DNA of 40,202 nucleotides from a virus. Lineage: Duplodnaviria; Heunggongvirae; Uroviricota; Caudoviricetes. A program made the position numbers and the translations under genes. Below the pieces are notes generated by a model. It ran no database searches, had not been told where the DNA came from, and was given only the letters and a program-made list of their open reading frames with translations. Shown in pieces: positions 4,397 through 35,897 of the stretch; positions within the stretch are counted from its first letter, which is position 1, and every line of letters starts with the position of its first letter. Where the stretch lies: IMG/VR virus record IMGVR_UViG_3300013121_000035, positions 1-40,202 of that record. The stretch is one strand, 5' to 3'.

Positions 4397-6013
4397 ATGA
4401 GCATCCGCCGCGCCCTGCCCCTGCCCCAACCCGGCGACGCCGCCCCGCTCGGCCCGGTCGTCGCCGCGGTCGTGCTGTGCCCACTGCTCGTCCTCGGCGC
4501 GTTCAGCCTGCCGCTCAACACCGCGCTCCAAGCCGCCCTGCCCTACCTGGTCGCGTTCGCCTGCGGCGGGGGCCTGCTGCTCGCCGCCTGCCTGCACTGG
4601 ATCGCGCGCACCATCGACGACGACCAGCTGGACTTCCTCGGCGTCGTCTACCTCCTGGCCGCCCTCGGGGTGCTGCTGCGCGGTGTCGTCCTGCCGCAAA
4701 CCAGCGCCATCGGCAACGCCACCATCATCGGCTCCACTGACGCGTCGGCGCTGCTGACCCTGCTGTGGCACGCGCTGATCCCCATCGGCGCCCTGCTCGT
4801 CCTCGGCCGCCACGCCGCCCGCTACGGCTGGGCGCCAACCCTCACCCTCGGGGTGTTCACCGGCGCGGTCATGATCGCCATGCTCCCCCTGGGCGGCCCC
4901 GACCTCGCCGACCCCAACGGCGTCAAGACCACCCTCGGGGTCACCCTGGCAGTCAGCGTCGGCGCCCTCAGCGCCCTCGCCGCCATCCTGTGGGTCCGCG
5001 CCGGCAACCGCCGCCCCTACGGTCCCGACCCGTGGATCGCCGCCAACCTCATCCTGGTCAGCGCCGGGGTCTTGCTGTGGGCCATCGCCGGCCCCCGCTA
5101 CAGCCCCCTGTGGTGGGCGTCGCAATGCTGCGACGCCCTGGCGTTCATCACCGCCGGCGCCGGCCAGCTCCAAGCCGTCGCCCGCTTCCAGACCGCGATG
5201 AACAACTACGTCGCCAGCCAGCAAGTCCTGCGCCGCGCCCAACCCCGGCCCAGCATCGAACTCAGCGACGCCAGCAGCCAGACCAGCCGCGACGCGATCG
5301 CCGCGCTGATCACCCACCCCGATCAGATCACCATGCTCGTCCAGCCCATCGTCGACCTCACCAGCGGCCGGGTCGCCGGCGCCGAAACCCTCGCCCGCTT
5401 CACCCCCGACCCCACCCAGCCGCCAACCGCCTGGTTCGACGCCGCCCACGCTGCCGGGCTGGCCAGCGACCTGGAACTGCTCTGCGCCCGCGCCGCCCTG
5501 ACCCACCTGGGCGCCCTACCCAACGACCTGTACCTGTCGATCAACCTCAGCCCCACCACCCTGGCCCAGATGCACTCCATCGCCGACACCTTCACCGTCA
5601 CCGGCCGCGACTGGCGCCGCATCGTCGTCGAAGTCACCGAACAGCAGCTCATCGACGACTTCGCCCACCTCGGCGACCTGTTCACCCCCGCCCGCGACCT
5701 CGGCGTCCGCCTGGCCATCGACGACCTCGGCAGCGGCCAAGCCGGCCTGCAGCACGTGCTGTACCTGCGACCCGAAGTCATCAAGATCGACCAGTCCATC
5801 GTCCAAGCGGTCGACACCGACCCCTACTGCCGCGCGCTGATCGCCAGCCTCGTCGCGTTCACCAGCGCGATCGGCGCCAGCCTCGTCGCCGAAGGTGTCG
5901 AGACCGCCGCGCAACACCGCACCCTGGTCAGCCTCGGCGTCAGCTACGGCCAAGGGTTCCGGCTCGGGCGCCCCATGCGCGTCGAAGACCTGCGCGTCCG
6001 CCTGCAACCCTGA
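4397..6013 (+). CDS. membrane-bound EAL-domain c-di-GMP phosphodiesterase (MASE4-like N-terminus)
   Basis: Multi-TM N-terminus (LLWHALIP, RYSPLWWASQ); QPIVDL, GAETLARF, SINLSP, EVTE, DDLGSG, IKID, AEGVET, GQGF: catalytic E/N/E/DD/K/E/Q retained. Confidence 0.92.
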   Translation: MSIRRALPLPQPGDAAPLGPVVAAVVLCPLLVLGAFSLPLNTALQAALPYLVAFACGGGLLLAACLHWIARTIDDDQLDFLGVVYLLAALGVLLRGVVLPQTSAIGNATIIGSTDASALLTLLWHALIPIGALLVLGRHAARYGWAPTLTLGVFTGAVMIAMLPLGGPDLADPNGVKTTLGVTLAVSVGALSALAAILWVRAGNRRPYGPDPWIAANLILVSAGVLLWAIAGPRYSPLWWASQCCDALAFITAGAGQLQAVARFQTAMNNYVASQQVLRRAQPRPSIELSDASSQTSRDAIAALITHPDQITMLVQPIVDLTSGRVAGAETLARFTPDPTQPPTAWFDAAHAAGLASDLELLCARAALTHLGALPNDLYLSINLSPTTLAQMHSIADTFTVTGRDWRRIVVEVTEQQLIDDFAHLGDLFTPARDLGVRLAIDDLGSGQAGLQHVLYLRPEVIKIDQSIVQAVDTDPYCRALIASLVAFTSAIGASLVAEGVETAAQHRTLVSLGVSYGQGFRLGRPMRVEDLRVRLQP

Positions 6014-6029
6014 CCGCCAAGGAGCCCAC

Positions 6030-6371
6030 ATGGCCTACATCGCGCTTGCGCTCATCCAAGTGCTCATCGCCGCCGCCTACGTCGTCATCGGCGTCAGCGT
6101 GCTACCCCGCGTGCGCTTTGGCGCCGTGGCCGCCATGCTCGCGCTCGGCTTCTTCCTGCTGTGCGCCGGCACCCACTTCGACCTCGCACGCCACACCGCC
6201 CAACGCAACGACCCCGACCTCATCGCCCCCCACATGTGGGCGTTGCACGTCAGCCAAGCCGTGATCGACTGGGCGTTCATCTTCGCGGTCCGCCGCTGGA
6301 AGATCGAGATCCGCCGCCGCCCCCCCGACGAGCGGCGCTGGCTGCGGTTCCTCGACGACGACCACGGCTAG
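6030..6371 (+). CDS. stand-alone 3-TM protein resembling the ETR1-type ethylene/copper-binding domain
   Basis: RBS AAGGAG; LIAAAYVVI, GFFLLCAGTH (CxxxH), ALHVSQAVI align with ETR1 FIAIAYFSI, AFIVLCGATH, TAKVLTAVV. Confidence 0.7.
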   Translation: MAYIALALIQVLIAAAYVVIGVSVLPRVRFGAVAAMLALGFFLLCAGTHFDLARHTAQRNDPDLIAPHMWALHVSQAVIDWAFIFAVRRWKIEIRRRPPDERRWLRFLDDDHG

Positions 6372-7381
6372 CTGACCTGCCATCCTGTCCGGCCGCGCTT
6401 GGCCGCGTACATCGCCCGGTCCGCCGCGGCCAGCAGCGCCGCTGGTGTGGCCCGCTGTGCCGAGGACAGCGCGACCCCCACACTCATCGACACCCGCACC
6501 TCCACCCCCGCCCGCACCGGCCGCTCCAACCGGGCCATCAACCGGCGAACCACCACCTGCGCGTGCTCCGGCGAGCTGTTCTCCAGCAGCATCGCGAACT
6601 CGTCGCCCCCCAGCCGCGCGGCCGAGTCCGATTCGCGCAACCCCACCCGCAACCGGCGGGCGACCTCCACCAGCACCCGGTCGCCGACCTGATGGCCGAA
6701 CGTGTCATTGATCCGCTTGAAGTCATCCACGTCGGCGTACAGCAACGCCACCGTCGCCCCGGTCCGCCGCGCGCGTGCCAGCGCGTGCTCCAGCCGGTCC
6801 TCGAACAGCGTGCGGGCCAGCAGCCCCGTCAACTGGTCAGTCAGCAGCGTCTCGTTGAACCGCCACGAGATCAGGTACGGCAAGTTGGTCAACCCCACGA
6901 ACGTCACCTGCGCGATCACCACGATCAGCGGCTGCTGCAACGCCCCATGCGCGTACAGCGTCGCCGGCGCGATGAGCGCCGCGCCGGCCAGGAACACCGC
7001 GTACGCGCCGATCGCCACCAGGCACGGCAGCCACGCCTGATACAACGTGACCATCCCGATCGTGGCGAAGAAGTGCAGATGCCACAGCCCACCACCACCG
7101 AGCACCACCAGCAGCGCGCTGGAGCCCACCAACGCCGTCGAGCCCAACGCCATCCGCGCCCGGCGTGACTGCGCCCAATTCGCGCCCGCCGCGAGCGCCG
7201 CCAGCGCCAACGCCTCAGCCACGCCCAGCCGTGCCCGCCCCGTCACCACCCCGACCGCGATCAGCAGGGCCACGTGCGCCCAGATCACCATCACGATCCC
7301 ACGGTGTCGTGCGAGCAGCGCGCTGGACGGCAACATCTGCCCGCGCGGCACAATCCTGCGCACGCGTGCCCGCCAAGACAC
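6368..7381 (-). CDS. membrane-bound diguanylate cyclase (GGDEF)
   Basis: RBS AGGAG; TM N-terminus; DQLTGL, DVDDFKRINDTFGHQVGD, I-site RESD, RLGGDEF (GGDEF at 6596-6610). Confidence 0.95.
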   Translation of the reverse strand: MSWRARVRRIVPRGQMLPSSALLARHRGIVMVIWAHVALLIAVGVVTGRARLGVAEALALAALAAGANWAQSRRARMALGSTALVGSSALLVVLGGGGLWHLHFFATIGMVTLYQAWLPCLVAIGAYAVFLAGAALIAPATLYAHGALQQPLIVVIAQVTFVGLTNLPYLISWRFNETLLTDQLTGLLARTLFEDRLEHALARARRTGATVALLYADVDDFKRINDTFGHQVGDRVLVEVARRLRVGLRESDSAARLGGDEFAMLLENSSPEHAQVVVRRLMARLERPVRAGVEVRVSMSVGVALSSAQRATPAALLAAADRAMYAAKRGRTGWQVS

Positions 7382-18074: not shown

Positions 18075-18419
18075 GTGCCCAAGCCAGCCACGCTCAACTT
18101 GGAGCTCTACCAGGGCGACTACTTCGAGCTGGCCGTCACGCTCTACGAGGTCGACGGGACCACCCCCAGGAACCTGACGGGCATGACGCCACGCGCCCAG
18201 GTTCGCACCACCGCGGAGGACTCCACCGTCCTGTTGGAGTTCGATATCACCATCGACGACGACCCCACCACCGGCCAGCTCACCCTCAGCGCCGCGTCCG
18301 CGCAGACCGCGCTGCTGCCCAAGAAGGCCGTGTGGGACTTCCAGCTCACCGACGCCGGCGACCGCACCCGCACCTACCTGCGCGGCAGTGTGGTGGCCAC
18401 CCGCGAGGTCACCCGCTGA
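18075..18419 (+). CDS. virion structural adaptor (LtfC/BppU-N-like), paralogue 1
   Basis: [25 protein letters not shown]; paralogous to 25502-25867. Confidence 0.7.
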
Positions 18420-19453
18420 TGGCCGACCCTGACGTCGTCGTCAACGTCACCCAAGCTGGTGACAACGTGCTGTCGGCCGTCGCCGACGGTGACGTTGTCA
18501 TCCTCGTTGAGGAGGTCAGCGCCGGCCCGCCAGGGGCGCAAGGTGACCCGGGACCACCCGGGGAGCAGGGCGAACCTGGCCCGCCCGGCGAGCCTGGGGA
18601 GCAGGGCGAACCCGGTCCGCCTGGTGAGCCCGGCGAGCCCGGTGAGCCCGGCGCCCCCGGCGACAAGGGCGACAAGGGCGATCAGGGTGACCCTGGTCCG
18701 CAAGGCGACCCTGGTCCGCAAGGTGATCCCGGCCCAGAAGGCACGTTCTCGATGGTCAGCCTCGACGCCGACTTCGACGTCGACGCCGCACCCGCCGCCG
18801 ACTACGAGCTGCGACCCGAGATCGACTACGCGAGCGCCACCACCGCCGACGTCGGCTACGCGCTCAACCTCGCCAAGAAGAACATCAGCGCGGTGGTCGA
18901 CGTGCTGCACCGCGCGGTCAACGCCGCGCAAGGCCCCCAAGGTGACCCGGGGCCTCCTGGCGCGGCGGTCGACCCTGACGACTACATCTACGCCTGGCGC
19001 GAGGCCCCCTACACCCTGAGCGTCGTCGGCCAGACCTACCCGATGACCTGGGACACCGTCAACGACGACTACCTGGGCGCCTCCTTCGACGTCCCCGGCG
19101 TCGGCGACGGCTCCATCGTCGTGCGCGTCATCCAGCCAGGCTGGTTCGTCGTCGCCGGCCTGGTCAAGTTCGCCGCGACCAACAGCGACGACGACCAGGT
19201 CGGCGGCACCCGCGAGATCCTCATCTCCGGCAGCGGCGTGAGCGGCTGGAACGCCATCACCGTCCTGCCGAGCTCCCAGAGTCCCGTGCTCAGTGCCCAG
19301 GTCATCACCGAGGTCACCCAGGCAGACATCGACGCGTGGGATTCCAACAACCCCACGGCCGGCGCCAGTGTCGTACAGGTCAACGCCCGGCAGGTTACCG
19401 GCGGACCCCTGGACGTCATCAGCGCCGAGGTCATGGTCAAGAGGCTGACATGA
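18419..19453 (+). CDS. collagen-like fibre protein with C-terminal beta-sandwich head
   Basis: 24 uninterrupted Gly-X-Y triplets at 18524-18742 plus a short second run. Confidence 0.8.
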
Positions 19454-20145
19454 GCACCGACGAGTACCTCCACCGCAGCGTCGACCCCGAGACCGGCGAC
19501 GAGCAGGTCACCTGGACCGAGGTCGCCTCCGGCCCCCAAGGCGACCCCGGCCCCCAAGGCGACCCCGGCCCCCAAGGCGACCCCGGCCCGCCGGGGTCGG
19601 ATGCCACCAGCGCGTGGGTGCCACTGGGGGAGATCCTGCTGACCAGCAACGCCCAGCACACCGACTGGATCACCATCGACCCAGGCGGTGGCGGCACCGA
19701 CACCTACGAGGAGTTCCTGGTCTTTTGCGACTACACCGTCGGCTCCGGTGATCGCATGATGCTGCAGTTCAACGGGGACGTCGGCCAGAACTACTACGTG
19801 CGGTTCTTGTCCTCAGTCGCCGGCAGCGGCGGCAGCAGCACCACCCAGATCGGCCCCGAGTCCGGCATCCACCTGGCGCCCTGGTTCATCGCGCTGCGCC
19901 AGTCGTGCCTGCTGCACATCTCCAACACCAGCTTGCGGCAGAAGAAGGTCGCGTTCCTGGCGTGCAACCAGGAAACCGCGACCGACGCCACCTTCCCGAC
20001 GCTGGTCACCGCCGGCGAAGGCCACTGGCCCAATGCCAGCCGCATCTACCAGATGCGCCTGCAGACGTTCAACAACCAGTACGCGACCGCGCCGATCCGC
20101 ATCGTCGTCTCCGGCCGCAGCCGGATCAGCCGCACCGCCCCATGA
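19450..20145 (+). CDS. short collagen-like fibre/receptor-binding protein
   Basis: GPQGDP x3 then beta-rich domain. Confidence 0.7.
19531..19584 (+). repeat. perfect 18-bp tandem repeat GGCCCCCAAGGCGACCCC x3
   Basis: Three identical copies encoding GPQGDP. Confidence 0.9.
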
Positions 20146-21662
20146 GCAGCCCACTCAAAATGGGTTCGGGTCTGGCCGAGATCAACGCCATGAGCGAACA
20201 GGCCGCGATGCACGCCCCCTACAAGATCGTCAAGGACGGCGACCAGTGGTGCGTGCTGAACAACCTCGGCGAGGTCAAAGCCCGGTTCAAGACCCACGCG
20301 AAGGCGATGGCGTACATGGCTGCCCTGTACCGCAACGTCCCCGGCGCCGCCGCCAAGGCTGCTCGGACACCCTGGACCGGCCGCGCCGGCAAGAGCGGCA
20401 AGAGCGAAGCTGCCGCGCGTGACCCCAAGAAGCCCTACGGTGACGTGACCTACGCCGACCCCGGCTACCAGGACGACGGCAAGAAGCGCTACCCGCTGGA
20501 CACCGCCGACCACGTTCGCGCAGCCTGGTCCTACATCAACCAGCCGGGCAACGCCGCCAAGTACACCGGCACCCAGCTCGCGCTCATCAAGGGTCGCATC
20601 CGCGCCGCCGCCCGCCGTTTCAATGTCGCCATCAGCAGCGGCAAGGAAGCGGCGGGGCTCGGGTCCCCGGCGCCGGCGGCCCGCGGCGCCCCGCCGGCGC
20701 CGGGCACCACGCCCGCACCCGTCATCACGCTCCCGGCGGTGCCGGTCGGCACGACCAGCAGCTCGGCCAACCACACCTTCAGTGGTGTGACCACCACCGG
20801 GCAGCCAGTGATCGTCACCGTCAGCGGCACGACACCAGCAACGCCCGTTGCCAGCGTCGAGACGGCCGACAGTCACGCACCGTCGGCGATCCTGACCGAG
20901 ATCGGCGGACGCACCCTGCTGACCACCTCGGCCCGCGTCGTCACCGACCCGGCCCAGGTTCCCCGGGAACTCGCCGCTGCCTACGAGCAGGCCGCCAAGG
21001 CCAACCCCGAGCTGGTCTGGCTCACCGGCCGGTTCGTGGAAGCCGAACGCGCCAACCGCAACGGCGCCTACTGGACCACCCAGGACCTCGAATTCGGCGA
21101 GACGTCCGTACGCAATGGCCCGCTCAACTGGCTGCACGATGCCACCCGTGTCATCGGCACCCTCACCGACGCCAAGCTGTTCTACCCAGAAGTCGCCGGC
21201 GATCGCGCTCATATCGTCGCCCAAGCCGCCATCTGGCCGTGGCTATATCCCGGCGAAACCGATCTGATCCGCACCTGCAGTGACGCCGGCAAGCTGTGGT
21301 TCAGCATGGAATGCCGCGCGCAGACCGTGCGCTGCGAAACCTCCGGTGACGGCGAGCGGGTCGGCTGCGGGCGGGAGTTCACCAGCGCCGACGTCTACGA
21401 CCACCCCGAGCGGTCCTGCCAACATCTGCGCGAGCGCAGCAGCCAGCGGCGCATGGTCAACCCGACCTTCTACGGCGGCGCGGTCATCCTGCCGCCCGCC
21501 CAGCCGGGTTGGGCCGGCGCCGACGTCCGCCTGGCCAGCGAAGCCGCCAGCCTTGCCGAAGCCACCGCCGCGTCCGCGTTGCGCGAAGGGCTTGGTGACG
21601 CCGAATGGGAAGGCGTCATGGGCCAAGTCGTCCGGTTCGCCCACGCCCGCGAGGCCCGCTGA
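20142..21662 (+). CDS. multi-domain capsid maturation protease candidate
   Basis: DUF6582-like segment (KPYGDVTYADPG...RYPLDTADHVRAAWSYIN), Pro/Thr linker, then ANRNG...PLNWLH...FSMEC domain; position before scaffold and capsid. Confidence 0.6.
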   Translation: MSSPLKMGSGLAEINAMSEQAAMHAPYKIVKDGDQWCVLNNLGEVKARFKTHAKAMAYMAALYRNVPGAAAKAARTPWTGRAGKSGKSEAAARDPKKPYGDVTYADPGYQDDGKKRYPLDTADHVRAAWSYINQPGNAAKYTGTQLALIKGRIRAAARRFNVAISSGKEAAGLGSPAPAARGAPPAPGTTPAPVITLPAVPVGTTSSSANHTFSGVTTTGQPVIVTVSGTTPATPVASVETADSHAPSAILTEIGGRTLLTTSARVVTDPAQVPRELAAAYEQAAKANPELVWLTGRFVEAERANRNGAYWTTQDLEFGETSVRNGPLNWLHDATRVIGTLTDAKLFYPEVAGDRAHIVAQAAIWPWLYPGETDLIRTCSDAGKLWFSMECRAQTVRCETSGDGERVGCGREFTSADVYDHPERSCQHLRERSSQRRMVNPTFYGGAVILPPAQPGWAGADVRLASEAASLAEATAASALREGLGDAEWEGVMGQVVRFAHAREAR

Positions 21663-21688
21663 CCACCCCCCGCGGCCTCGCAGCTCAA

Positions 21689-21712
21689 TTCCTCAGCCCC
21701 GCCTGGCGAGAC
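21689..21712 (+). promoter_or_regulatory. degenerate copy of promoter motif TTCC-N12-GGCGAGAC
   Basis: One mismatch per box, same spacing, upstream of scaffold-capsid genes. Confidence 0.35.
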
Positions 21713-21805
21713 ACCGGCCAGAGCGCACTGCCGTGCGCTTAGCCGTCAGCCCACCAGCTGGCGGCGCCAGCCCCAGCTCGAAAGACGCCGGCAGAGGGAG
21801 GACCA

Positions 21806-22390
21806 GTGGCCGAGCGCACCTTCACGGAGGAGCAGTTCAACACGCTGCTCGAAGCGACGGTCGAGCGCGAGGTGGCGGCGGCCAACGAGAAGATCGCCGC
21901 GTTGGAGCAGGCGAATGCTGACCTGCAGGAGAAGGTGGCCACCACGGTCACCGACACCGACAAGGTCAAGCAGGACCTGACCCAGCGGGTCGACACCCTC
22001 GAAGCCGAGAAGCTCGCCGCCCAAGCCGACCGCGACCGCATCCAGGCCGAATTCGACCAGTTCAAGGCGGACGCAACCGCCAAGGAGCAGGCCGCAGCCC
22101 GCCGCGACGCCCGCGTCGCCGAGATGCGCGAGGCCGCCAAGGGCCTCAAGGACGACTATTTCACCGCCGAGCGGGCCGACCGCTGGGCGCAGCTGGACGA
22201 CGAGGCGTTCTCCGCCCACAAGGCCGAGCTCGCCGCGATCGCCGGCGCGCTCACCCCGGCCGGAGACGACACCAAGCCACCGCGGGAGACCGCGATGGCC
22301 GGTCAGACCCCCAAGCCCAAGGACTCCGAGCAGCCAAGCGCCCTGTCGCGGCTGCTGTTCGGCGCCCCGACCCCCGCGCGGGAGGTGTAA
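21806..22390 (+). CDS. scaffolding-like coiled-coil protein
   Basis: RBS GGGAGGA; long charged coiled coil; position. Confidence 0.6.
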   Translation: MAERTFTEEQFNTLLEATVEREVAAANEKIAALEQANADLQEKVATTVTDTDKVKQDLTQRVDTLEAEKLAAQADRDRIQAEFDQFKADATAKEQAAARRDARVAEMREAAKGLKDDYFTAERADRWAQLDDEAFSAHKAELAAIAGALTPAGDDTKPPRETAMAGQTPKPKDSEQPSALSRLLFGAPTPAREV

Positions 22391-22396
22391 CGACAA

Positions 22397-22954
22397 GTGG
22401 CGAGCAACTACGGTCCCAACTTCGGGATTCGCAGAGCCGACGAGCACAACGCCATCCGCGAGGGCCGATTCAAGACCCCCGTGGGCGGCACCCCGCTCCT
22501 CCTCGGCACCTGCGTCGAGATCGACCCGGACAACCCGGGCTTCCTGCGCCAGGGCGCCAGCGATGGCGGCACCGAAGCGCGGTCGGGAGCGTCCGGCCTG
22601 CTCGTGTCCGAAGACCAGTTCCTGCAGTCGGTGTTCTCCACCGGCGCCGGCCAGGTCTCCGGCTACGACTTCTACGCGCTCGGCCGGGCACCGCTCGGCA
22701 AGTACGCCGTGATCCTCAGCGGCACCGGCGCCAAGGTCTGGCTGCGCAACACCGCAACCAAGACCATCGGCGGCCGCACGATCACCGGCGTGACCATGTT
22801 CGCCGGCACACCCGACGTCGGCGACCGGCTCGGCTGGAACGGCAGCGCGTGGGCGGTCAACGCCACCGCCGCACAGCAGTTCATGGAAGTCGTGCTCGTC
22901 AAGCGCGACCCGGCCTACGACCTCGACCACATCGAGGCCGTTCTTCTCGTCTGA
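22397..22954 (+). CDS. capsid decoration/minor head protein
   Basis: RBS GGAGGTG; directly before major capsid gene. Confidence 0.55.
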   Translation: MASNYGPNFGIRRADEHNAIREGRFKTPVGGTPLLLGTCVEIDPDNPGFLRQGASDGGTEARSGASGLLVSEDQFLQSVFSTGAGQVSGYDFYALGRAPLGKYAVILSGTGAKVWLRNTATKTIGGRTITGVTMFAGTPDVGDRLGWNGSAWAVNATAAQQFMEVVLVKRDPAYDLDHIEAVLLV

Positions 22955-22973
22955 AAAGGGGGTGCGAACACCA

Positions 22974-23930
22974 ATGACCACGGCAACTCACCAGCTCATC
23001 CACACGCCGCGCGTCGACGCCTTCGGCCGCACTCCCGCAGAGCGCGCCGAACACCAGCGGCTGTGCGACGAGGTCAACGCCGAGGCTGCCAAGAACTGGC
23101 ACGACCCCGCATGGCGGCGCGAGATGGCCGCACAGCTCACGACCTCGATCCAGTACGGCTTCGAGTTCGAGTCGCTGTTCCAGACCTACCTGGACGTGCG
23201 CAACGTCGGCTTCAACGACCAGGTCATCATCCGCGAGACCCGCGGCCTCCAGGCGTTCTGGACCGCGCGGGGCGGCTACATCGAGGAAAGCCAGCTCCGG
23301 CACGACGTCTTCGAGATCCCCAGGGACATGCTCGGCTTCCACGTCAGCGAGCACGAAGACAAGCTGCAGGTCAACTTCGCGGAGTCCATCGCGGAGCTTC
23401 GCCGCCTGGCGATCATCCGCATGGACGCCGAGATCAACCGGCGGATGGTCGACTTGCTGCGCGCCTCCATCGGCGTGGGCAGCCCGTACTACTCCTCGGC
23501 CAGCAGCGTCGGCAAGACCGCCGTGGACGCCGCAGTCCGGGCCGTACGCGACGCCGAACCAGGCGGCGCGCCGGTCACGATCATCGGCCGCTCCACGATG
23601 GTGGACCAGATCTCCGACTTCGAGGGCTTCGGTCCCGAAGCGCAGGAGGAGATCCGCCAGCGCGGACGCCTCGGCGTGTACCGCGGTGCCAACATCGTCG
23701 CGCTCAACAACTACCTCGACGAGGACGGCATCCCCTACCTTCCGGCCAACGAGATGTGGGTCATCTCCGGGTCGGTCGGCACGTTCGCCTTCTACGGGCC
23801 GCTGCAGAACAAGCAGGGCGCCGAGGCGTTCAACTGGTACTACCACTACCTCGGCCGGCGTGACGTCGGCGGCGCGATCCTGCACCCTGAGAGGGCGCGC
23901 CGGGTGATTGACACGTCGATCACCCCGTAA
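22974..23930 (+). CDS. major capsid protein
   Basis: About 318 aa, very strong codon bias, followed by twin hairpins; position after scaffold and decoration genes. Confidence 0.75.
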   Translation: MTTATHQLIHTPRVDAFGRTPAERAEHQRLCDEVNAEAAKNWHDPAWRREMAAQLTTSIQYGFEFESLFQTYLDVRNVGFNDQVIIRETRGLQAFWTARGGYIEESQLRHDVFEIPRDMLGFHVSEHEDKLQVNFAESIAELRRLAIIRMDAEINRRMVDLLRASIGVGSPYYSSASSVGKTAVDAAVRAVRDAEPGGAPVTIIGRSTMVDQISDFEGFGPEAQEEIRQRGRLGVYRGANIVALNNYLDEDGIPYLPANEMWVISGSVGTFAFYGPLQNKQGAEAFNWYYHYLGRRDVGGAILHPERARRVIDTSITP

Positions 23931-23933
23931 TAA

Positions 23934-24022
23934 TCCCTGCGGCGATCTCCGCATGAAGGATCGCCGCAGGGAGGGAAGTCGAACAGACCCGGGACGTCAC
24001 TCGCTCCGTCCCGGGTCTGTTC
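23934..24022. terminator. two tandem hairpins, likely bidirectional terminator
   Basis: 14-bp stem 23934-23947/23959-23972 and 16-bp stem 23981-23996/24007-24022. Confidence 0.75.
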
Positions 24023-24026
24023 ACGT

Positions 24027-24170
24027 TCACGGATCGTCGCGTTGGATCTCGACGTCTCGCGGCGCGGTGATCCCCACTCGGACCTGCCCGCCGCGCACCT
24101 CCAGCACGGTCACGACCACATCCGGCCCGATCGTCAGGCTCTCGCCGACCCGGCGGGTGAGGACAAGCAC
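24027..24170 (-). CDS. csrA: CsrA/RsmA RNA-binding translational regulator, 47 aa (not in ORF track)
   Basis: RBS GGGAGG, GTG; [47 protein letters not shown] aligns without gaps to E. coli CsrA 1-47 including R44. Confidence 0.9.
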
Positions 24171-24183
24171 GGCAACCTCCCTG

Positions 24184-24573
24184 CTAGGACGGTGTCGTGG
24201 GCTCCACCGCGGTCGTCTCCGGGTGCGCGTGGCGGATCGCCCACAGCTCCGGCGGCGGGGGAGTGTGCAGCGAGCCGACCGGCTCGCCGCGCTGCGCGTA
24301 GCCGACCCACGCCAGCAGCAGCTGCTTGGTGAGCCGGTTCACCCGCAGATCCGGCAGGACCCGATGGTGGCGGGTGGCGTTGATCAGCCGGTGGGTCTCC
24401 GAATGGGTCGTCGGGCACACCAGCACCGTGTTCTCCCGCACATCCGGCCCGCCCATCCCCAACGGCCACACATGGTGGAACTCCACCAGATGCACCGGCG
24501 GCGCGTGGTTGGTCACACACGCGCACCGTGCCAGCGGGTGCACCAACGCCCAACGACTAGTCATACCCCACAT
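24184..24573 (-). CDS. HNH endonuclease
   Basis: CACVTNH...[31 protein letters not shown]; start 24573 or 24564. Confidence 0.75.
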
Positions 24574-24595
24574 ATCGGTCGCGGCGTCGACTGCA

Positions 24596-24619
24596 TTCAG
24601 TCCTCGCGGCTGCCGAGGG
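24596..24619 (+). promoter_or_regulatory. putative sigma28/WhiG-like promoter TTCA-N12-GCCGAGGG
   Basis: Motif match upstream of 24661. Confidence 0.6.
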
Positions 24620-24660
24620 ACCAGCAGGTAGGAACAGGACCTGAGCGAGTAGGAGCACCA

Positions 24661-25164
24661 ATGGAACGGATGCCACTGGAAGTGTGGGAGACCGCCACTG
24701 ACAGCACCGTGTTCGTGGCACGCACCGACCAGTTCGGCCGCGAAACCCTCCAAGGCGTCGGTGGGCGCGTCGGCGCCAAGCTGCAGATCACCGTCGAAGA
24801 CCGCGAGTACAACCAGCAGAAAGCCGCCGACCCCTCCCTGGACCCGTTCCTCAACGGGCTGCTCAGCCCCGTCAAGGTCCACGGCGCCCCCGAGCAGATC
24901 GCCAGCCCCAACGCGCTGTCGCGCGCGGAGATGGTCGCCGTTTTTGCCAAGACCGGCCGCGCGTTCCACGCCGCGCTGGACCGCATCACCAGCGAAGTCA
25001 CCCTGCGGACCCTGCGCCGCGTCGCCAGCGAAGTCGACGCCAAGCAATCCCAGATCGCCGAGCTCGACCGCCGCCTGGAACCGTTCACCGTCGTCGGCAA
25101 GCAGCAGAGCGTCTACAAGGAACTGCAACCCGAAGGGCCACGCCCGCACGCCACCGTCGAATAG
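24661..25164 (+). CDS. hypothetical protein
   Basis: RBS TAGGAG; 167 aa; strong codon bias. Confidence 0.75.
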   Translation: MERMPLEVWETATDSTVFVARTDQFGRETLQGVGGRVGAKLQITVEDREYNQQKAADPSLDPFLNGLLSPVKVHGAPEQIASPNALSRAEMVAVFAKTGRAFHAALDRITSEVTLRTLRRVASEVDAKQSQIAELDRRLEPFTVVGKQQSVYKELQPEGPRPHATVE

Positions 25165-25182
25165 CCCAAGGAGGAGGGTGTC

Positions 25183-25407
25183 CTGGCCGCCAAGTTCAGC
25201 GACGCCCGCTTCCTTCGCGCCTTCCACGGCTGGGCGACCATCACCTGGGCGGTGCTGATCGTCCCGTCAGTGCTGTGGTGGCGTTCCTCCCTGCCGTGGA
25301 TCGTGCTCATGAGCGTGTGGGCCAACCTGGCCGGCCACTGGTCCAGCTGGCAGGCCAGCCGCGTCGAAGTCAAAGAAGACGAGCGCGACGCAGGCTCCCA
25401 ACCCTGA
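25183..25407 (+). CDS. Trp-rich small membrane protein, probable CTG start (not in ORF track)
   Basis: RBS AAGGAGGAGG; LAAKFSDARFLRAFHGWATITWAVLIVPSVLWWRSSLPWIVLMSVWANLAGHWSSWQASR. Confidence 0.6.
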   Translation: MAAKFSDARFLRAFHGWATITWAVLIVPSVLWWRSSLPWIVLMSVWANLAGHWSSWQASRVEVKEDERDAGSQP

Positions 25408-25438
25408 GCTTCGCGCCACACCGCTGCTCCCGGTCGAT

Positions 25439-25461
25439 TTCGACCCTCCCGCCGCCGACCT
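25439..25461 (+). promoter_or_regulatory. putative promoter TTCG-N11-GCCGACCT
   Basis: Near match, spacer 1 nt shorter, upstream of 25502. Confidence 0.45.
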
Positions 25462-25501
25462 CCAGTGAGGAGAGCGACAGCGGCGGGAGGCGGAGCGGCG
25501 C

Positions 25502-25867
25502 GTGGCAGCACCACCTGTGAGCAGCGACCTGGAAATCATGCAGGGCGCTGACCTGTCGTTGCTGGTCACCTACACCGACGACGACGGTGAGCCGTTCGAC
25601 CTGACCGGCTGGACCGCGCGGATGCAGGTGCGCGGCAGCTACAACGACACCAGCGCCGCGATCGACATCTCCACCACCCCCAACGACCAGGGCCGCATCG
25701 ACATCGACCTGCCCACCGGCACCCTGGCCGTGGCGATCGTCGCGGCCGCGACCGCGACCGTCACCCGCGAACGCAACGTGTGGGACCTGTTCGTCTACGG
25801 CCCCGCCGGCCAGGTCGAAACGCTGGTTCGCGGTGAGGCCACGCTGCTGCGGCGGGTGACCCGATGA
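25502..25867 (+). CDS. virion structural adaptor (LtfC/BppU-N-like), paralogue 2
   Basis: IMQGAD, DLTGWTARMQVR, VWD, RRVTR. Confidence 0.7.
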   Translation: MAAPPVSSDLEIMQGADLSLLVTYTDDDGEPFDLTGWTARMQVRGSYNDTSAAIDISTTPNDQGRIDIDLPTGTLAVAIVAAATATVTRERNVWDLFVYGPAGQVETLVRGEATLLRRVTR

Positions 25868-26160
25868 CGCAGATCACCATCCGGCGCGAGACCGGCCAGG
25901 CCCAGGTCGCCCGACGTCAAGGCGGCCAGGTCCAGGTCGTCGCCAGCCAGTTCTCACCGGCCCCACCGACCGTCGCCGTCCACGACCAGCCAGTCGCGGC
26001 GGCCGTGTGGAACATCGTCCACAACCTCGGCTATTTCCCCAGCGTCACGGTGGTCGACTCCGCCGACGCTGTCTGCTTCGGCGAGGTCCGCTACCTCGAC
26101 GAGAACCGGGTCCAGGTCACATTCTCGTCCGCCTTCGCTGGCCGGGCGTATCTCAGCTGA
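25864..26160 (+). CDS. small virion structural protein
   Basis: WNIVHNLGYFPSVTVVD...GEVRYLDENRVQVTF...GRAYLS, similar to C-terminus of the next gene. Confidence 0.7.
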   Translation: MTQITIRRETGQAQVARRQGGQVQVVASQFSPAPPTVAVHDQPVAAAVWNIVHNLGYFPSVTVVDSADAVCFGEVRYLDENRVQVTFSSAFAGRAYLS

Positions 26161-26170
26161 AGGAGGCGAT

Positions 26171-27373
26171 ATGCCAAAGTTCCTCTACCCGGTCGACCTG
26201 GCCCGCAACGAGCTCCGCAACGTCGCGCTGCAGAACCTCGCCAGCGCCCCGAGCACCCCCGCCGTCGGCCAAGCCTACTTCGACACCACCCTGCAACTAC
26301 CCAGGGTGTGGACCGGCAGCGTCTGGATCGACATCGGCAACATCGTCTTCGGCACCCCCGGCGACTCCGCCGTCGGCGACACCGCCACCCAAGGTGTCAG
26401 CCCTGACTCCGCCCGCGCCGACCACACCCACGGCCGTGAAGACTTCGGGCCGGTCTCCACCACCTTGGACTTCGCGTGGGACCCCACCAACGGCACCGCT
26501 GATACCGTCGCGCGCAGCGACCACAACCACGGCAGTGCCCTGCACGACGACGCCGCCCACAACTGGCTGCGGCTCAACGTCCTGCAAGCCCCAGACGCCG
26601 ACGTCAGCTTCGGCGGCTACAAGCTCACCGACGTCGCCAGCCCCACCACCGACACCGACGGGGTCAACAAGGCGTACGCCGACGCGCTGCGCGCCGGGCT
26701 GGACGTCAAACAGTCCGTCCGTTACGCCACCACCGGGCCGATCACCTTGTCCGGCAACCAGAGCGTCGACGGCGCCACGACCGCCGCCGGGATGCGCGTG
26801 CTGGTCAAGGACCAAGTCGACGCTACCGAGAACGGCATCTACCTGACCGCCGCGGGTGCCTGGGCGCGCGCCAGCGACGCCGACGCCGCCGGGGAGTTCA
26901 CCGCCGGGCTGTTCGTGTTCGTCACCGAAGGCGCGGTCAACAGCGACTCCGGCTGGGTGCTGACCACCAACGACCCGGTCACGCTTGGCTCCACGCCCCT
27001 GGCGTTCGCCCAGTTCTCTGGCGCTGGGCAGATCATCGCCGGCACCGGGATCACCAAGAGCGGCAACACCCTGTCGCTGACAACACCCGTCGACATCGCC
27101 AACGGCGGGACCGGCGCGGCAACCGCCGCCGCGGCCCGCGCCGCGCTGGGCGTGCCGGGCGTCTACTCCACCACGATCGGCGACAACAGCTCCACCGCGA
27201 TCACCGTCACCCACAGCCTCGGCACCCGCGACGTCCAAGTCAGCCTCTACTCCGCCGGCAGCCCCTACGCCGAGGTCGACACCGAAGTCGAACACACCGA
27301 CGCCAACTCGGTGCTGCTGCGCTTCTCCGTCGCCCCGGCAACCAACGCCTACCGCTGCGTGGTGATCGGGTGA
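26171..27373 (+). CDS. virion fibre/decoration protein
   Basis: RBS AAGGAGG; VNKAYAD, LDVKQSVRYAT, RVLVKDQ, ENGIY, WARASDAD, FAQFSGAG. Confidence 0.75.
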   Translation: MPKFLYPVDLARNELRNVALQNLASAPSTPAVGQAYFDTTLQLPRVWTGSVWIDIGNIVFGTPGDSAVGDTATQGVSPDSARADHTHGREDFGPVSTTLDFAWDPTNGTADTVARSDHNHGSALHDDAAHNWLRLNVLQAPDADVSFGGYKLTDVASPTTDTDGVNKAYADALRAGLDVKQSVRYATTGPITLSGNQSVDGATTAAGMRVLVKDQVDATENGIYLTAAGAWARASDADAAGEFTAGLFVFVTEGAVNSDSGWVLTTNDPVTLGSTPLAFAQFSGAGQIIAGTGITKSGNTLSLTTPVDIANGGTGAATAAAARAALGVPGVYSTTIGDNSSTAITVTHSLGTRDVQVSLYSAGSPYAEVDTEVEHTDANSVLLRFSVAPATNAYRCVVIG

Positions 27374-29841
27374 GCCGCAAGTTCCTGTCCGTCCTCGAAG
27401 CGCCCGGCTACCCCGGCGTCGCCCAAGACGTCCTCGCGCAGTCCTACCACCACCACAACGACAACCTGGTCTACAACTCCAGCTTCGAGATCCCCGACCC
27501 CGCTGATGTCACCAAACCGCACGGGTGGAAGTGCTACAGCGTCGCCGGGCCGATCACCTGGGGCTTGCAGACCACCGCCGCCAACCTTCGCTCAGGGTTC
27601 CGCTCGGCCTACATGACCATCGGTGACGGCACCGGGTCGCTGCGGATCTCCAGCGAAGGCGCCAAGTTCCCCGTCGCCACCGGCGAGCAGCTGTGGGCAT
27701 CCGTCTGGTACCAGACCTCCAGCTCCTTCACCGGCAACGCCGTGCTGCCAAGCGTGCTGTGGTGGGACAGCGTCGGGGCTTTCCTGTCTTCTAATGGTCT
27801 TGGCAGCTACAGCGCGAGCACCACCGGCGCCCGCGCCGCCGCGCTCGTCACCCCACCCGCAGGCGCGGTCAACGCGTCCATTCAGGTGCAGTTCCACGGC
27901 CCCGACATCTCCGGCGGCAGCCCCACCTACCCGCTCACCATCTACATCGACGACGCCATCCTGGTCCGCGCGGACGGGCCGACCAGCTACGCGACGGCGC
28001 GCACCCTCGGCACCGGGTCCACCCAGGCCGCCGCCGGTGACCACGGTCACAGTCAGCTGGTCGCCCCGCTGCTGGTGGTCAACAACGGTGCCATCAGCGT
28101 CGTCCCCGTCGCCGTCAAGGGTGTCTCCGGGCAGACCGGGGACCTCCAACAGTGGCAGGACTCCACCGGCGCGGTCCGAGCCCGCATCAGCAACCTCGGC
28201 TCCCTCGCCGTCACCAACGGCACCAGCGACACGGCCAGCATCGACGGGTCGGTGGGCTACTTCCGCGGCGCTGGCATCACCAAGGCTGACAACACCGGCG
28301 GGTATGTGACCCTGGACGGGGCAGGTGCCGCCGGCCACGGTGTGGTCGTGCGCGGTCGCACGACCAACCAGACCACGCTCGTGGTTCGTCCCGTGGCCGC
28401 CCAGAGCGCGGACCTGCAGCAGTGGGTGAACGACACTGCCGGGTCGGTTCTGGCCAAGGTGACCAAGGACGGCATCGCGGATGTCGCTGGCCTGCTGATC
28501 GGCGGCCAGGCCCTGCTCGGCCAGGCCGCCACGCAAGCGGCGCCCGGCAACCACCCCCACAACTTCGACGACAACCTCGTCATGAACGGCGGGTTCGAGG
28601 TTGCCAGCCCCACCGACGCGACCAAGCCGTTCGCGTGGATCGGGACTGTCGGCGCCGGCTCACCCACCTGGGGCCTGAACACCGCCGCCGCGAACCTGCT
28701 CAGTGGCACCAAGTCCTGTTACATCACTATCACCGCCGGCACCGACCACCTGAAGATCACCAGCGACTCAGCCAAGTTCCCCTGCACCACCGGGGAGATT
28801 CTGTGGGCGCAGCTGCGCGTGAAGACCTCCGCGGTCTACACCGGCAACGGCGTGCGCAGCTACATCGACTGGGAAGACGCCAGCGGCGCGTACCTGTCGT
28901 CCACGGTCATTGGGCAGATCCCCGGTGACACCAACTGGGGGCAGATGCAGGCGCTGGTCACCCCGCCCGCCAACGCCACCCAGGGCAGCTTCATGGTCCA
29001 GCACTACGGGCCGAACATCACCGGCAGCCCGACCTATCCGCTGACGCTGTACATCGACGCGTGCACCGTCACTCGTGCGATCACCGACCAGCGGGTCGCT
29101 GCCGCGAACAAGGACGGCGTCGCCGGCACCGCGTCCATGCGCACCATCGGGACCGGCGCGACTCAGGCCGCCGCCGGGAACCACACGCACACCGCGGCTG
29201 CGGGCTCGATGAACTTCGATTCAGCGCAGGAGACCACCTACCAGGTCCAGCAGGAATTCGACGTTGCGACCAGCTTCGGCAGCCCCGCCAACGGGATGGG
29301 CACCGGCTGGACCTCGGTCGGGTCGCTCGCCAGCGCGTACCGCGAAACGTCCGTTGGCCAGTTCGAGAACGGCTCCGCGCAGTCAACGACCGCGATTCTC
29401 GGCTACATCTACACACTCACCACCAGCCAGGACTTCGCCGCCTACTTGAAGATCCCCCGCTACGGCCCCGCCGCCGCCGGGCTGTGCTACGGGGTGCTGG
29501 TCCGCGACTCCACCAAGTACTACGCGTTCGTCTACGACGACGCCGACCAGACCATCAAGGTCAAATACTTCACCAACGCCACCACCTTCTCCACCAACAA
29601 GTTCACGTCCGCGGCGCTGACGATCAGCCGCCCGGACATGTTCAAGATCACCCGCGCGACCAGCGTGTGGACCTGCTGGGTCGGGATCGAAGGCATGTGG
29701 GTGAAGGTCTGCGACGCCCAGACGTTCAGCGACCTCAACAACAGCCCCGGCTCGATCGGGTTCGGGTTCACCTTCCAGTCGGGCACCAACCTGGTCGCCA
29801 ACGCCCACCGGGTCGGCTGCGACTACGTGCGGGTGATGTGA
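27370..29841 (+). CDS. fibre/receptor-binding protein with two carbohydrate-binding-like repeats
   Basis: Internal repeats NLVxNxxFE...GSPTYPLTxYID; three TQAAxGxHxH motifs; beta-rich C-terminus. Confidence 0.75.
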   Translation: MSRKFLSVLEAPGYPGVAQDVLAQSYHHHNDNLVYNSSFEIPDPADVTKPHGWKCYSVAGPITWGLQTTAANLRSGFRSAYMTIGDGTGSLRISSEGAKFPVATGEQLWASVWYQTSSSFTGNAVLPSVLWWDSVGAFLSSNGLGSYSASTTGARAAALVTPPAGAVNASIQVQFHGPDISGGSPTYPLTIYIDDAILVRADGPTSYATARTLGTGSTQAAAGDHGHSQLVAPLLVVNNGAISVVPVAVKGVSGQTGDLQQWQDSTGAVRARISNLGSLAVTNGTSDTASIDGSVGYFRGAGITKADNTGGYVTLDGAGAAGHGVVVRGRTTNQTTLVVRPVAAQSADLQQWVNDTAGSVLAKVTKDGIADVAGLLIGGQALLGQAATQAAPGNHPHNFDDNLVMNGGFEVASPTDATKPFAWIGTVGAGSPTWGLNTAAANLLSGTKSCYITITAGTDHLKITSDSAKFPCTTGEILWAQLRVKTSAVYTGNGVRSYIDWEDASGAYLSSTVIGQIPGDTNWGQMQALVTPPANATQGSFMVQHYGPNITGSPTYPLTLYIDACTVTRAITDQRVAAANKDGVAGTASMRTIGTGATQAAAGNHTHTAAAGSMNFDSAQETTYQVQQEFDVATSFGSPANGMGTGWTSVGSLASAYRETSVGQFENGSAQSTTAILGYIYTLTTSQDFAAYLKIPRYGPAAAGLCYGVLVRDSTKYYAFVYDDADQTIKVKYFTNATTFSTNKFTSAALTISRPDMFKITRATSVWTCWVGIEGMWVKVCDAQTFSDLNNSPGSIGFGFTFQSGTNLVANAHRVGCDYVRVM

Positions 29842-34898: not shown

Positions 34899-34985
34899 AC
34901 CCCGTGGAAATGGACGACCCGCACTCGTGCGGGTTGGTCGTGCGCGCGCACACCAGGAACAGGCACAGGACCAGGAGGCCCATCC

Positions 34986-35897
34986 GTGAAGGACCGCTAC
35001 AAGCGGGTCACCGATCTGTTCGTCGAGGGCACCGAAGTGGTCCTCGACGACAGCCCCGAGGACCCGCTGATCATCTGGGTGCAAAAGCCCAACCCGTTCG
35101 AGCGTGAAGAAGCCCGCCGCGACGCCCAAGTCGCCGGCGCCAGGTTCACGCTCACGCTACAAGACGACAGTAGCGATGAGATTGCCGTCTTCCGTGCCGG
35201 GTTGGTCCGGCTGGATCGCCAAGACCTGGTCGATGCCATCGTCGATCTGAAATTTTCCGAGGACCTCGTCCTGGCCCAAAACGAGCTGCGCGATGACAAG
35301 GACTGGACTGAGAAGCTTGCCATCGTTGACCGTTCCGGCGGGCAGCTCGAAGGCCGCGGACAAGACGATCCAGAAGTCCTCAAGGTCGCTGAGATCAACC
35401 GCGAGTACTTGACTGAGACCAACGATCGTGTCGACGCCCGCCGCGCTGCCCGCCGTGACGAACTGGAGCGATTCACCGAACTCGAACTGCGCGACGAATA
35501 CGAGCGTGCCTACATCGAAGCGCTCGCGACCGCGAACAGCCTGCGCGAATTCCGCACGACCGAGATCTTCTTCGCTGCCCGTGTGTGCTCAGCGGTCCCA
35601 AACGACGATGCCACCGCCGGGTGGGACCACTCAGGCTGCGCCGGCCACCGAGCCCGCATCTTCGACGACCGTCAAGAAGTCCGAGAGATCGACGACGAAC
35701 TTCACCAGCGGATCTCCGCGGCAATCAGCAGGGTCACGATGAGCCCACGAGAAGCAAAAAACTCGGCCAGGCGGGGGAGTTCATCCGAGTCGTCTCCACC
35801 GCCAAGCGAACCGGGGGAATCGACAGCCTCTACCCCAGAGGAGACATCCAACGAGCCGGCTGGGACCTCTGCACCGCCATCAGCCATTGCCTCATGA
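34986..35897 (+). CDS. tail assembly chaperone (gpG-like)
   Basis: RBS AGGAGG, GTG; 303 aa; between tail tube and tape measure; slippery site present. Confidence 0.7.
   Translation: MKDRYKRVTDLFVEGTEVVLDDSPEDPLIIWVQKPNPFEREEARRDAQVAGARFTLTLQDDSSDEIAVFRAGLVRLDRQDLVDAIVDLKFSEDLVLAQNELRDDKDWTEKLAIVDRSGGQLEGRGQDDPEVLKVAEINREYLTETNDRVDARRAARRDELERFTELELRDEYERAYIEALATANSLREFRTTEIFFAARVCSAVPNDDATAGWDHSGCAGHRARIFDDRQEVREIDDELHQRISAAISRVTMSPREAKNSARRGSSSESSPPPSEPGESTASTPEETSNEPAGTSAPPSAIAS
35756..35762 (+). other. -1 ribosomal frameshift heptamer A AAA AAC
   Basis: In-frame GCA AAA AAC; -1 frame open to 36079. Confidence 0.75.

Follow-up and report, generated by a model that had tools for sequence, protein, structure and literature searches.

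How small can a CsrA protein be and still do its work? Few post-transcriptional regulators of bacteria have been studied as thoroughly as CsrA. The defining core of the family is given as β1-β5-H1, with helix α-1 counted in (PMC7366521). Laboratory truncations near residue 50 serve as loss-of-function alleles, and a natural form of 47 residues therefore asks what the minimum CsrA is. Such a form is encoded by a phage from activated sludge with a high-GC bacterial host. Its IMG/VR record is linear, 104,202 bp long and complete by CheckV; the window, that is, the whole stretch of DNA analysed here, comprises the first 40,202 bases of that record (GC 68.6%). An earlier note, made by reading the letters of this DNA, had described a hidden csrA ORF lying antisense within the head module, with a strong ribosome-binding site and with its β-core and RNA-contact residues kept, lacking the C-terminal helix and extension, and had proposed that its product escapes FliW. 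As argued below, the most likely reading of the locus (with a probability of about 0.45) is that it is an intact moron gene for an active minimal CsrA that is out of reach of helix-docking antagonists. If that is true, no smaller functional CsrA would be known, and the protein has no counterpart in actinobacterial phages among 90 CsrA-positive phage records. What sets this case apart is that the lineage is high-GC, that the helix is lost completely and that the partner gene is of the HNH type.

The csrA gene occupies positions 24027-24170 on the minus strand, exactly where the earlier note had placed a 47-codon ORF: 47 codons and a TGA stop, specifying the β1 to β5 core and ending at P47, with neither helix α-1 nor tail. 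Its start codon is the GTG at 24170; since no start codon precedes it in the open frame, the N-terminus of the protein corresponds to M1 of the family. The claim of a strong ribosome-binding site holds, in that GGGAGG, read from the sequence as a Shine-Dalgarno element (24176-24181, minus strand), stands 5 bases upstream of the GTG and 2 bases past the stop codon of the preceding HNH-type gene. The GC content at codon positions 1/2/3 (0.81/0.44/0.85) is the coding pattern of a 68.6% GC genome. In a simple codon-usage gene map of the window the neighbouring genes lie nearly all on the plus strand, so that csrA is rightly called antisense. Only the word hidden has to be withdrawn: a near-identical contig has a public gene call at this place, with a precomputed CsrA match.

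Membership in the CsrA family is secure. The HMM search that had been proposed as a check gives 73.8 bits against Pfam PF02599 (cut-off 27; E 1.1e-20), far over the cut-off, with residues 1-45 of the 47-residue protein aligned to profile positions 1-45 of 53; a profile search of the whole genome returns the same protein (66.3 bits) as the sole CsrA match in the 104,202-bp record. The two NCBIfam equivalogs are both just missed (NF002469, 72.5 vs 73 bits; TIGR00202, 65.1 vs 70.1 bits), because the phage protein can be matched only at positions 1-45 of their 65 and 69. All of the columns that are invariant in an alignment of its nearest relatives are kept (M1, L2, L4, R6, G15, T21, R26, G33, A36, P37 and R44), as are RNA-binding region 1 (residues 2-7) and R44, the residues in question being L2, L4, T5, R6, R7, V40, I42 and R44. 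Residues 1-46 align without a gap to the solved CsrA/RsmE chains 2JPP, 1Y00, 1VPZ and 2BTI. Profile, alignment and solved-chain comparison thus agree with the earlier statement that the β-core and the RNA-contact residues L4, R6, R7 and R44 are retained.

What is lost lies beyond that core. The barrel/helix border of CsrA is at R44/E45, with the helix running from residue 45 (PMC5864733), and the phage chain ends in D45-D46-P47, with D, D rather than E, E at positions 45/46; the C-terminal helix and extension are indeed missing, as had been claimed. RNA-binding region 2, which is defined as residues 40-47 and includes an isoleucine at 47, is accordingly not complete, position 47 being the terminal proline and not I47. 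The core fold of β1-β5 plus helix α-1 is likewise not attained. Compared with canonical CsrA/RsmA/RsmE (1Y00, 2JPP), the phage form is alike in residues 1-46, in region 1 and R44, and in its predicted β1-β4' pairing, and differs in its proline end at residue 47, its lack of helix α-1 and its scores under the equivalog cut-offs. The ORF therefore encodes a genuine member of the CsrA family that fails one of its defining structural features, the helix.

Is this early end an accident of sequencing or of recent mutation? Of 233 complete CsrA genes, drawn from the 80 best loci of each of three collections (viral, genome and metagenome), the shortest specifies 55 residues and none specifies 50 or fewer. 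Two database entries were tried as short CsrA proteins and rejected: P0073, the other entry with 47 residues, is a frameshift artefact, and P0064, with 50 residues, is incomplete because its contig ends within it. A complete natural CsrA of 53 residues was found in another contig, of 74% GC, and because it exists, short forms of CsrA are tolerated. The earlier note had held that a recent nonsense mutation would undo its case. In the three frames 3' of the csrA stop nothing is CsrA-like and no remnant of a C-terminus is left, and one codon past the stop there is another in the same frame; the early end is thus no recent nonsense or frameshift mutation. A diverged relative with the same 47-residue form was found neither in the IMG/VR scan, in which all 404 CsrA loci are at most 67% identical to the phage CsrA, nor among the metagenome matches listed, of which the best is 72% identical and which do not include the 80-82% identical relatives P0013 and P0102. 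A megablast search of isolated phages with positions 20000-28000 yielded no match.

A separate Logan contig (L100), which matches the window at 96.8% identity over 8.9 kb, has an identical csrA with the same 47 codons. Two further studies also have runs with contigs that cover csrA without differences, the allele thus being shared by independent sludge and aquatic studies. Its appearance on separate contigs rules out assembly error. The 4 kb round csrA (22400-26400) is found, whole or in part, in runs of approximately 15 studies, mostly of activated sludge or wastewater, most of these runs holding only a small share of it. The absence of any difference in csrA says nothing about constraint, because the whole of 21801-24500 differs from the near-identical Logan contig at only 3 positions.

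The dimer interface and the two RNA-binding strands are all kept in the phage chain. Structure prediction favours a homodimer (ipSAE 0.50, as against 0.00 for the best control; partner pLDDT of at least 79; at least 94% of contacts shared between runs). Of 30 proteins solved as one-chain pairs, 20 attain the 0.50 mark, as does 1 of 23 that were solved as single chains. The modelled contacts pair β1 with β4' as in the canonical strand-swapped dimer; since CsrA dimers have already been solved, the model shows likeness and not binding. Truncations of V. fischeri CsrA by 12 and 14 residues turned up among suppressor mutants with reduced function. E. coli CsrA cut at residue 50 (csrA51) is a viable hypomorph, with activity "drastically diminished" (PMC4844966), and the activity of the phage protein is uncertain because that truncation is so weak. 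The helix-less moiety of crystal 5Z38 shows order no further than P37 (PMC5864733), so that β5 may need the helix. The engineered CsrA-Cdel (M1-R44, 5Z38) and csrA51 have nearly the same length and cut point as the phage form; they are laboratory constructs of a gammaproteobacterial protein, whereas the phage gene is a natural one that ends at a probable terminator of its own and occurs in several metagenomes.

The proposed escape from FliW had been argued from the premise that FliW antagonises CsrA through its C-terminal extension. That premise needs correction: the decisive contacts are in helix α-1 (V51/N55 in C. jejuni, I52/N56 in G. thermodenitrificans), N55D blocks FliW binding in B. subtilis, and FliW binding by C. 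jejuni CsrA is unaffected when the last 15 residues are removed (PMC7829508). The proposal survives the shift from tail to helix, since the phage protein has neither, and positions 51 and 55 both fall beyond its C-terminus. Another antagonist behaves consistently: binding of CesT to the engineered E. coli CsrA M1-R44 is wholly lost (PMC5864733). It is plausible, on these comparisons, that the phage CsrA would lie beyond FliW's known mode of control.

Escape would presuppose a FliW-bearing host and an ancestral CsrA under the control of FliW. Yet FliW may never have mattered to this lineage, since 7 of the 9 nearest CsrA relatives (those with at least 34 of 46 residues identical) already lack N55, and none of the nearest relatives with readable surroundings has fliW beside csrA. 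The phage record of 104 kb has no match to FliW, even at E values up to 1. Of 5 actinobacterial genomes that were checked, 4 have fliW immediately upstream of csrA (Actinoplanes, Symbioplanes, an Acidimicrobiaceae MAG and an Actinomycetota MAG); these fliW-adjacent CsrA proteins have N55 and are slightly more distant from the phage CsrA. The differences in identity are small (36 vs 33 of 46 residues) and a tree of the 46-residue core is unresolved, with a support of 0.32. Set beside the FliW-partnered proteins (those of B. subtilis, of G. thermodenitrificans (5DMB) and of actinobacteria), the phage protein has the actinobacterial-type core (LEVRGGQ and not LGVKGNQ), and is 63-65% identical to the fliW-csrA copies of Actinoplanes, Symbioplanes and Acidimicrobiaceae; it differs in having no positions 51 and 55, in belonging to a phage with neither fliW nor flagellin, and in having nearest relatives without N55. 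One group of the relatives without N55 (L187, 4752-4985; L274, 3658-3840) comprises actinobacterial-type csrA genes of 60-77 residues in the order lysS, a 183/184-residue gene of the other strand, csrA, a sigma factor and response regulators, with no fliW adjoining.

The surroundings of csrA in the phage are those of accessory cargo. Immediately upstream on the minus strand is an HNH-type gene (24184-24573; its length is 129 residues in the call on the near-identical contig and 110 in a second call, and the simple codon-usage map missed it) whose Pfam HNH match (E 0.002, 18.6 bits) is under the cut-off. It is nearly an orphan, with one other relative among 5.8 billion proteins, apart from 312 distant small relatives; csrA adjoins neither of its two nearest relatives, and the HNH-csrA pair was not found elsewhere. 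The gap between the two genes is only 13 bases, with the Shine-Dalgarno element of csrA 2 bases past the HNH stop, for which reason they are probably co-transcribed. Downstream, the 96 bases that separate csrA from the converging gene are occupied by two hairpins, one at 23975-24028 (minus strand), which has an 18-bp core stem, starts within the stop codon of csrA and probably acts as a terminator, the other at 23934-23972, a probable two-way terminator for the genes that converge on it. Together they reach -67.1 kcal/mol (z -7.6), and 0 of 200 shuffles are as stable. A consensus scan showed no terminator with a U-tail; nor was a promoter seen in 23800-24800, for the minus-strand pair or otherwise, by a scan confined to the sigma-70 consensus and so blind to promoters of actinobacterial type.

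The gene that converges on csrA (22974-23930, plus strand) encodes a capsid-like structural protein of the YonB family (318 residues) that matches PHROG 16565. Assignment of the region to the head module is reasonable rather than demonstrated: the 26171-27373 protein matches a head-decoration PHROG (E 1e-58), and PHROG 16565 has no assigned function. On the other side, divergent from HNH-csrA, lies the conserved structural-module gene 24661-25164 (plus strand; 167 residues, no PHROG match), which is faced by a candidate promoter motif, TTCA-N12-GCCGA, read in the sequence at 24596-24619 (plus strand). These two genes are the left and right borders of a variable slot. The capsid-like protein occurs at 50-55% identity in 18 viral contigs (L082-L099), which share the order g22397, capsid-like gene, gap, g24661 homologue, the last of these following the capsid-like gene in 15 of 18; the gap varies from 266 to 3065 nt and its cargo differs from contig to contig, lysin-like and CHAP-like genes included. 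None of the 18 has csrA. Since the cargo of the slot differs among these relatives and csrA is in none of them, the HNH-csrA pair is lineage-specific cargo in a hot spot, the usual moron picture, with its own ribosome-binding site and hairpins, on the strand opposite its neighbours. Phage and plasmid CsrA/Rsm proteins such as RsmM of the Pseudomonas phages F116, H66 and phi297 are likewise accessory cargo, with a probably temperate phage in common; they differ in being of 55-84 residues with the helix, of proteobacterial type, and at most 67% identical to the phage form.

A single RNA contig touches the locus. It comes from a sludge metatranscriptome, is 244 nt long and corresponds exactly to 23750-23993, that is, to the 3' end of the capsid-like gene and hairpin 2, ending inside hairpin 1. 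This fits transcription of the capsid gene ending at the hairpins, or carry-over of DNA. This sole exact match ends short of csrA, and contigs cannot show absence; that csrA is expressed is inferred.

Where did the gene come from, and what is the host? The nearest proteins to the phage CsrA have an actinobacterial-type core (LEVRGGQ or LEVRGDQ), 60-83 residues and 70-82% identity. That csrA genes occur in phages of other hosts, as the earlier note had stated, is borne out by the present survey, in which 90 phage records match CsrA, none of them from an actinobacterial host, and by the 30 of 2517 phages counted previously (PMC7366521). In samples of 401 + 401 actinobacterial genomes no copy of the capsid-like protein was found. 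A BldC-like MerR/HTH_17 protein of 71 residues (1969-2184; 76.4 bits against NCBIfam HTH_BldC, cut-off 77; 26.8 for excisionase) points, by sequence likeness, to a host with a BldC regulon. BldC, fliW and csrA occur together in the genomes of Actinoplanes and Symbioplanes, and a motile actinomycete would be a host coherent with that set. A temperate lifestyle by way of a large serine integrase is suggested by a serine recombinase (resolvase) domain (E 6.5e-23) encoded in a 523-codon open frame beyond the window (G000:C1:71634-72080); tyrosine-type integrase, FliW, flagellin and Sigma70_r4 have no match in the phage.

The phage also encodes enzymes of c-di-GMP metabolism, an EAL gene at 4397-6013 (plus strand; Pfam E 4e-47) and a GGDEF gene at 6368-7291 (minus strand; E 3e-47), approximately 17 kb from csrA. 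The nearest relatives of the GGDEF protein are taxonomically mixed, the closest one other than itself being only 46% identical; the window has no tRNA. The earlier note had singled out the pairing of csrA with c-di-GMP enzymes and BldC as the unusual part. The GGDEF, EAL and BldC-like proteins are indeed encoded; they are no operon partners of csrA, since 17-22 kb separate them from it. The association gains a little substance from one close CsrA relative (P0067, 64 residues, 34 of 46 identical), another of those without N55, whose gene, on a JGI contig, diverges from an adjoining 766-residue GGDEF-EAL gene. The genes for its two sister proteins, P0013 and P0102, have the same layout, with a long divergent gene upstream. 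Pairing of csrA with c-di-GMP functions may be conserved in the nearest clade.

One candidate target lies next door. The leader of the 24661 gene (24618-24672, plus strand) is rich in GGA, with starts at 24618, 24631, 24637, 24652 (the Shine-Dalgarno element), 24663 and 24668, spanning -43 to +9. Its count of 6 is the highest of 52 leaders in the window (next 4, median 1); when the plus strand of the whole genome is cut into 82-nt windows, only 0.14% reach 6, and the homologous leaders in relatives without csrA have 0-4. The region was found post hoc, and GGA is inherent in a GGAGG Shine-Dalgarno sequence; the six-GGA leader is therefore a lead to a possible target and does not show binding. 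Second in the window by this count is the leader of the 34986 gene (34916-34997), with four GGA motifs (CCAGGAACAGGCACAGGACCAGGAGG). A decoy RNA of the CsrB kind was also sought: Rfam gave no match, and no stretch of 200 nt contains more than 4 ANGGA motifs.

How might a CsrA so reduced operate? Two 47-residue chains would interlock into a strand-swapped β-barrel, each RNA-binding edge of which would be made of β1 of one chain (L2, L4, R6, R7) and β5 of the other (V40, I42, R44). Such a dimer could bind GGA at or near Shine-Dalgarno sequences, so that translation would be blocked or timed. Because the chain ends where helix α-1 should begin, the phage CsrA is without the docking surface for FliW or CesT-like antagonists, and its activity, once it is made, could not be titrated by such docking. 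HNH and csrA would be co-transcribed against the structural genes, up to the two hairpins. The likely targets would be host mRNAs for motility and c-di-GMP lifestyle, possibly also that of the phage gene at 24661. In a fuller version, the phage CsrA and the phage's own c-di-GMP enzymes would lock the motile/sessile switch of the host and time a structural gene through its six-GGA leader. We put forward only tentatively the broader proposition that the helix-less CsrA is a working, antagonist-immune regulator, or else acts by mixing with host CsrA, in a temperate phage of sludge Actinomycetota.

The same facts can be read as decay. An actinobacterial csrA might have lost its 3' end on insertion beside the hairpins and now give a weak or unstable protein, or none, a decaying or inert remnant that would persist only through a young, nearly clonal phage population at this locus. 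The 50-residue E. coli protein, a strong hypomorph (PMC4844966), speaks for this, as do the disordered β5 of the helix-less moiety in 5Z38, a length that is under the 55-residue minimum of the 233 complete genes (best 80 loci per collection), the artefactual nature of the other 47-residue entry, an RNA contig that stops short of csrA, and the lack of sequence variation that could show constraint. A decaying gene is, on the other hand, poorly reconciled with a protein that keeps every family-invariant residue intact at 64-77% identity to its nearest proteins in the alignment, with a strong Shine-Dalgarno element and an exact start, with the lack of a C-terminal trace in any frame and a stop codon placed within a strong hairpin, like a settled gene end, and with the existence of the natural complete 53-residue protein in another high-GC contig. 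We consider decay on the whole doubtful. Were the gene inactive, it would nevertheless provide a dated case of gene decay in phage cargo.

Rather improbable is a role for the short chain as a poison or modifier subunit, forming heterodimers with host CsrA that have one complete and one helix-less site and a single FliW helix; two-site RNA binding would then be weakened, or CsrA control in the host rewired, and the phage protein would be no regulator in its own right. The dimer interface of CsrA lies entirely in the β-core, which the phage protein has kept in full and near the actinobacterial consensus, and the linked helix-less and full-length chains of 5Z38 do form a native-like barrel with one antagonist site (PMC5864733). 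Those chains are covalently linked, however, which makes them no test of free mixing, and the scheme presumes that the host has a CsrA. Least likely of all is that csrA is a passenger of a mobile HNH cassette, a homing-type endonuclease having settled in the slot with csrA carried along and playing no part in infection. The spacing of 13 bases, the strand opposite to that of the neighbours, the variability of the slot among relatives and the near-orphan state of the HNH gene would all fit; the two nearest HNH relatives, however, have no csrA adjoining, no second copy of the pair was found and the Pfam HNH match is under its cut-off, and being a passenger is compatible with having a function.

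An active minimal CsrA, which we prefer, would be a minimal RNA-binding scaffold and at the same time a regulator that its antagonists cannot reach. It raises the question of whether phages deliberately shed the surface that hosts use to control CsrA, and it extends phage-borne csrA to high-GC hosts, in which the biology of CsrA is almost unexplored.

Three minor observations were made along the way. At positions 6001-6546 of viral contig L027 there is a 181-residue protein that joins a complete N-terminal CsrA to an unrelated extension of approximately 120 residues. In the window itself, the gene at 18419-19453, upstream of the structural genes, specifies 344 residues that include collagen triple-helix repeats (Pfam E 6.5e-17). 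Finally, the 823-residue gene at 27370-29841 differs from its counterpart in L100 at 8.45% of positions, while the flanking genes differ at 0-1.7% and the phages are otherwise 98-100% identical; its product is probably a fast-evolving host-recognition protein.
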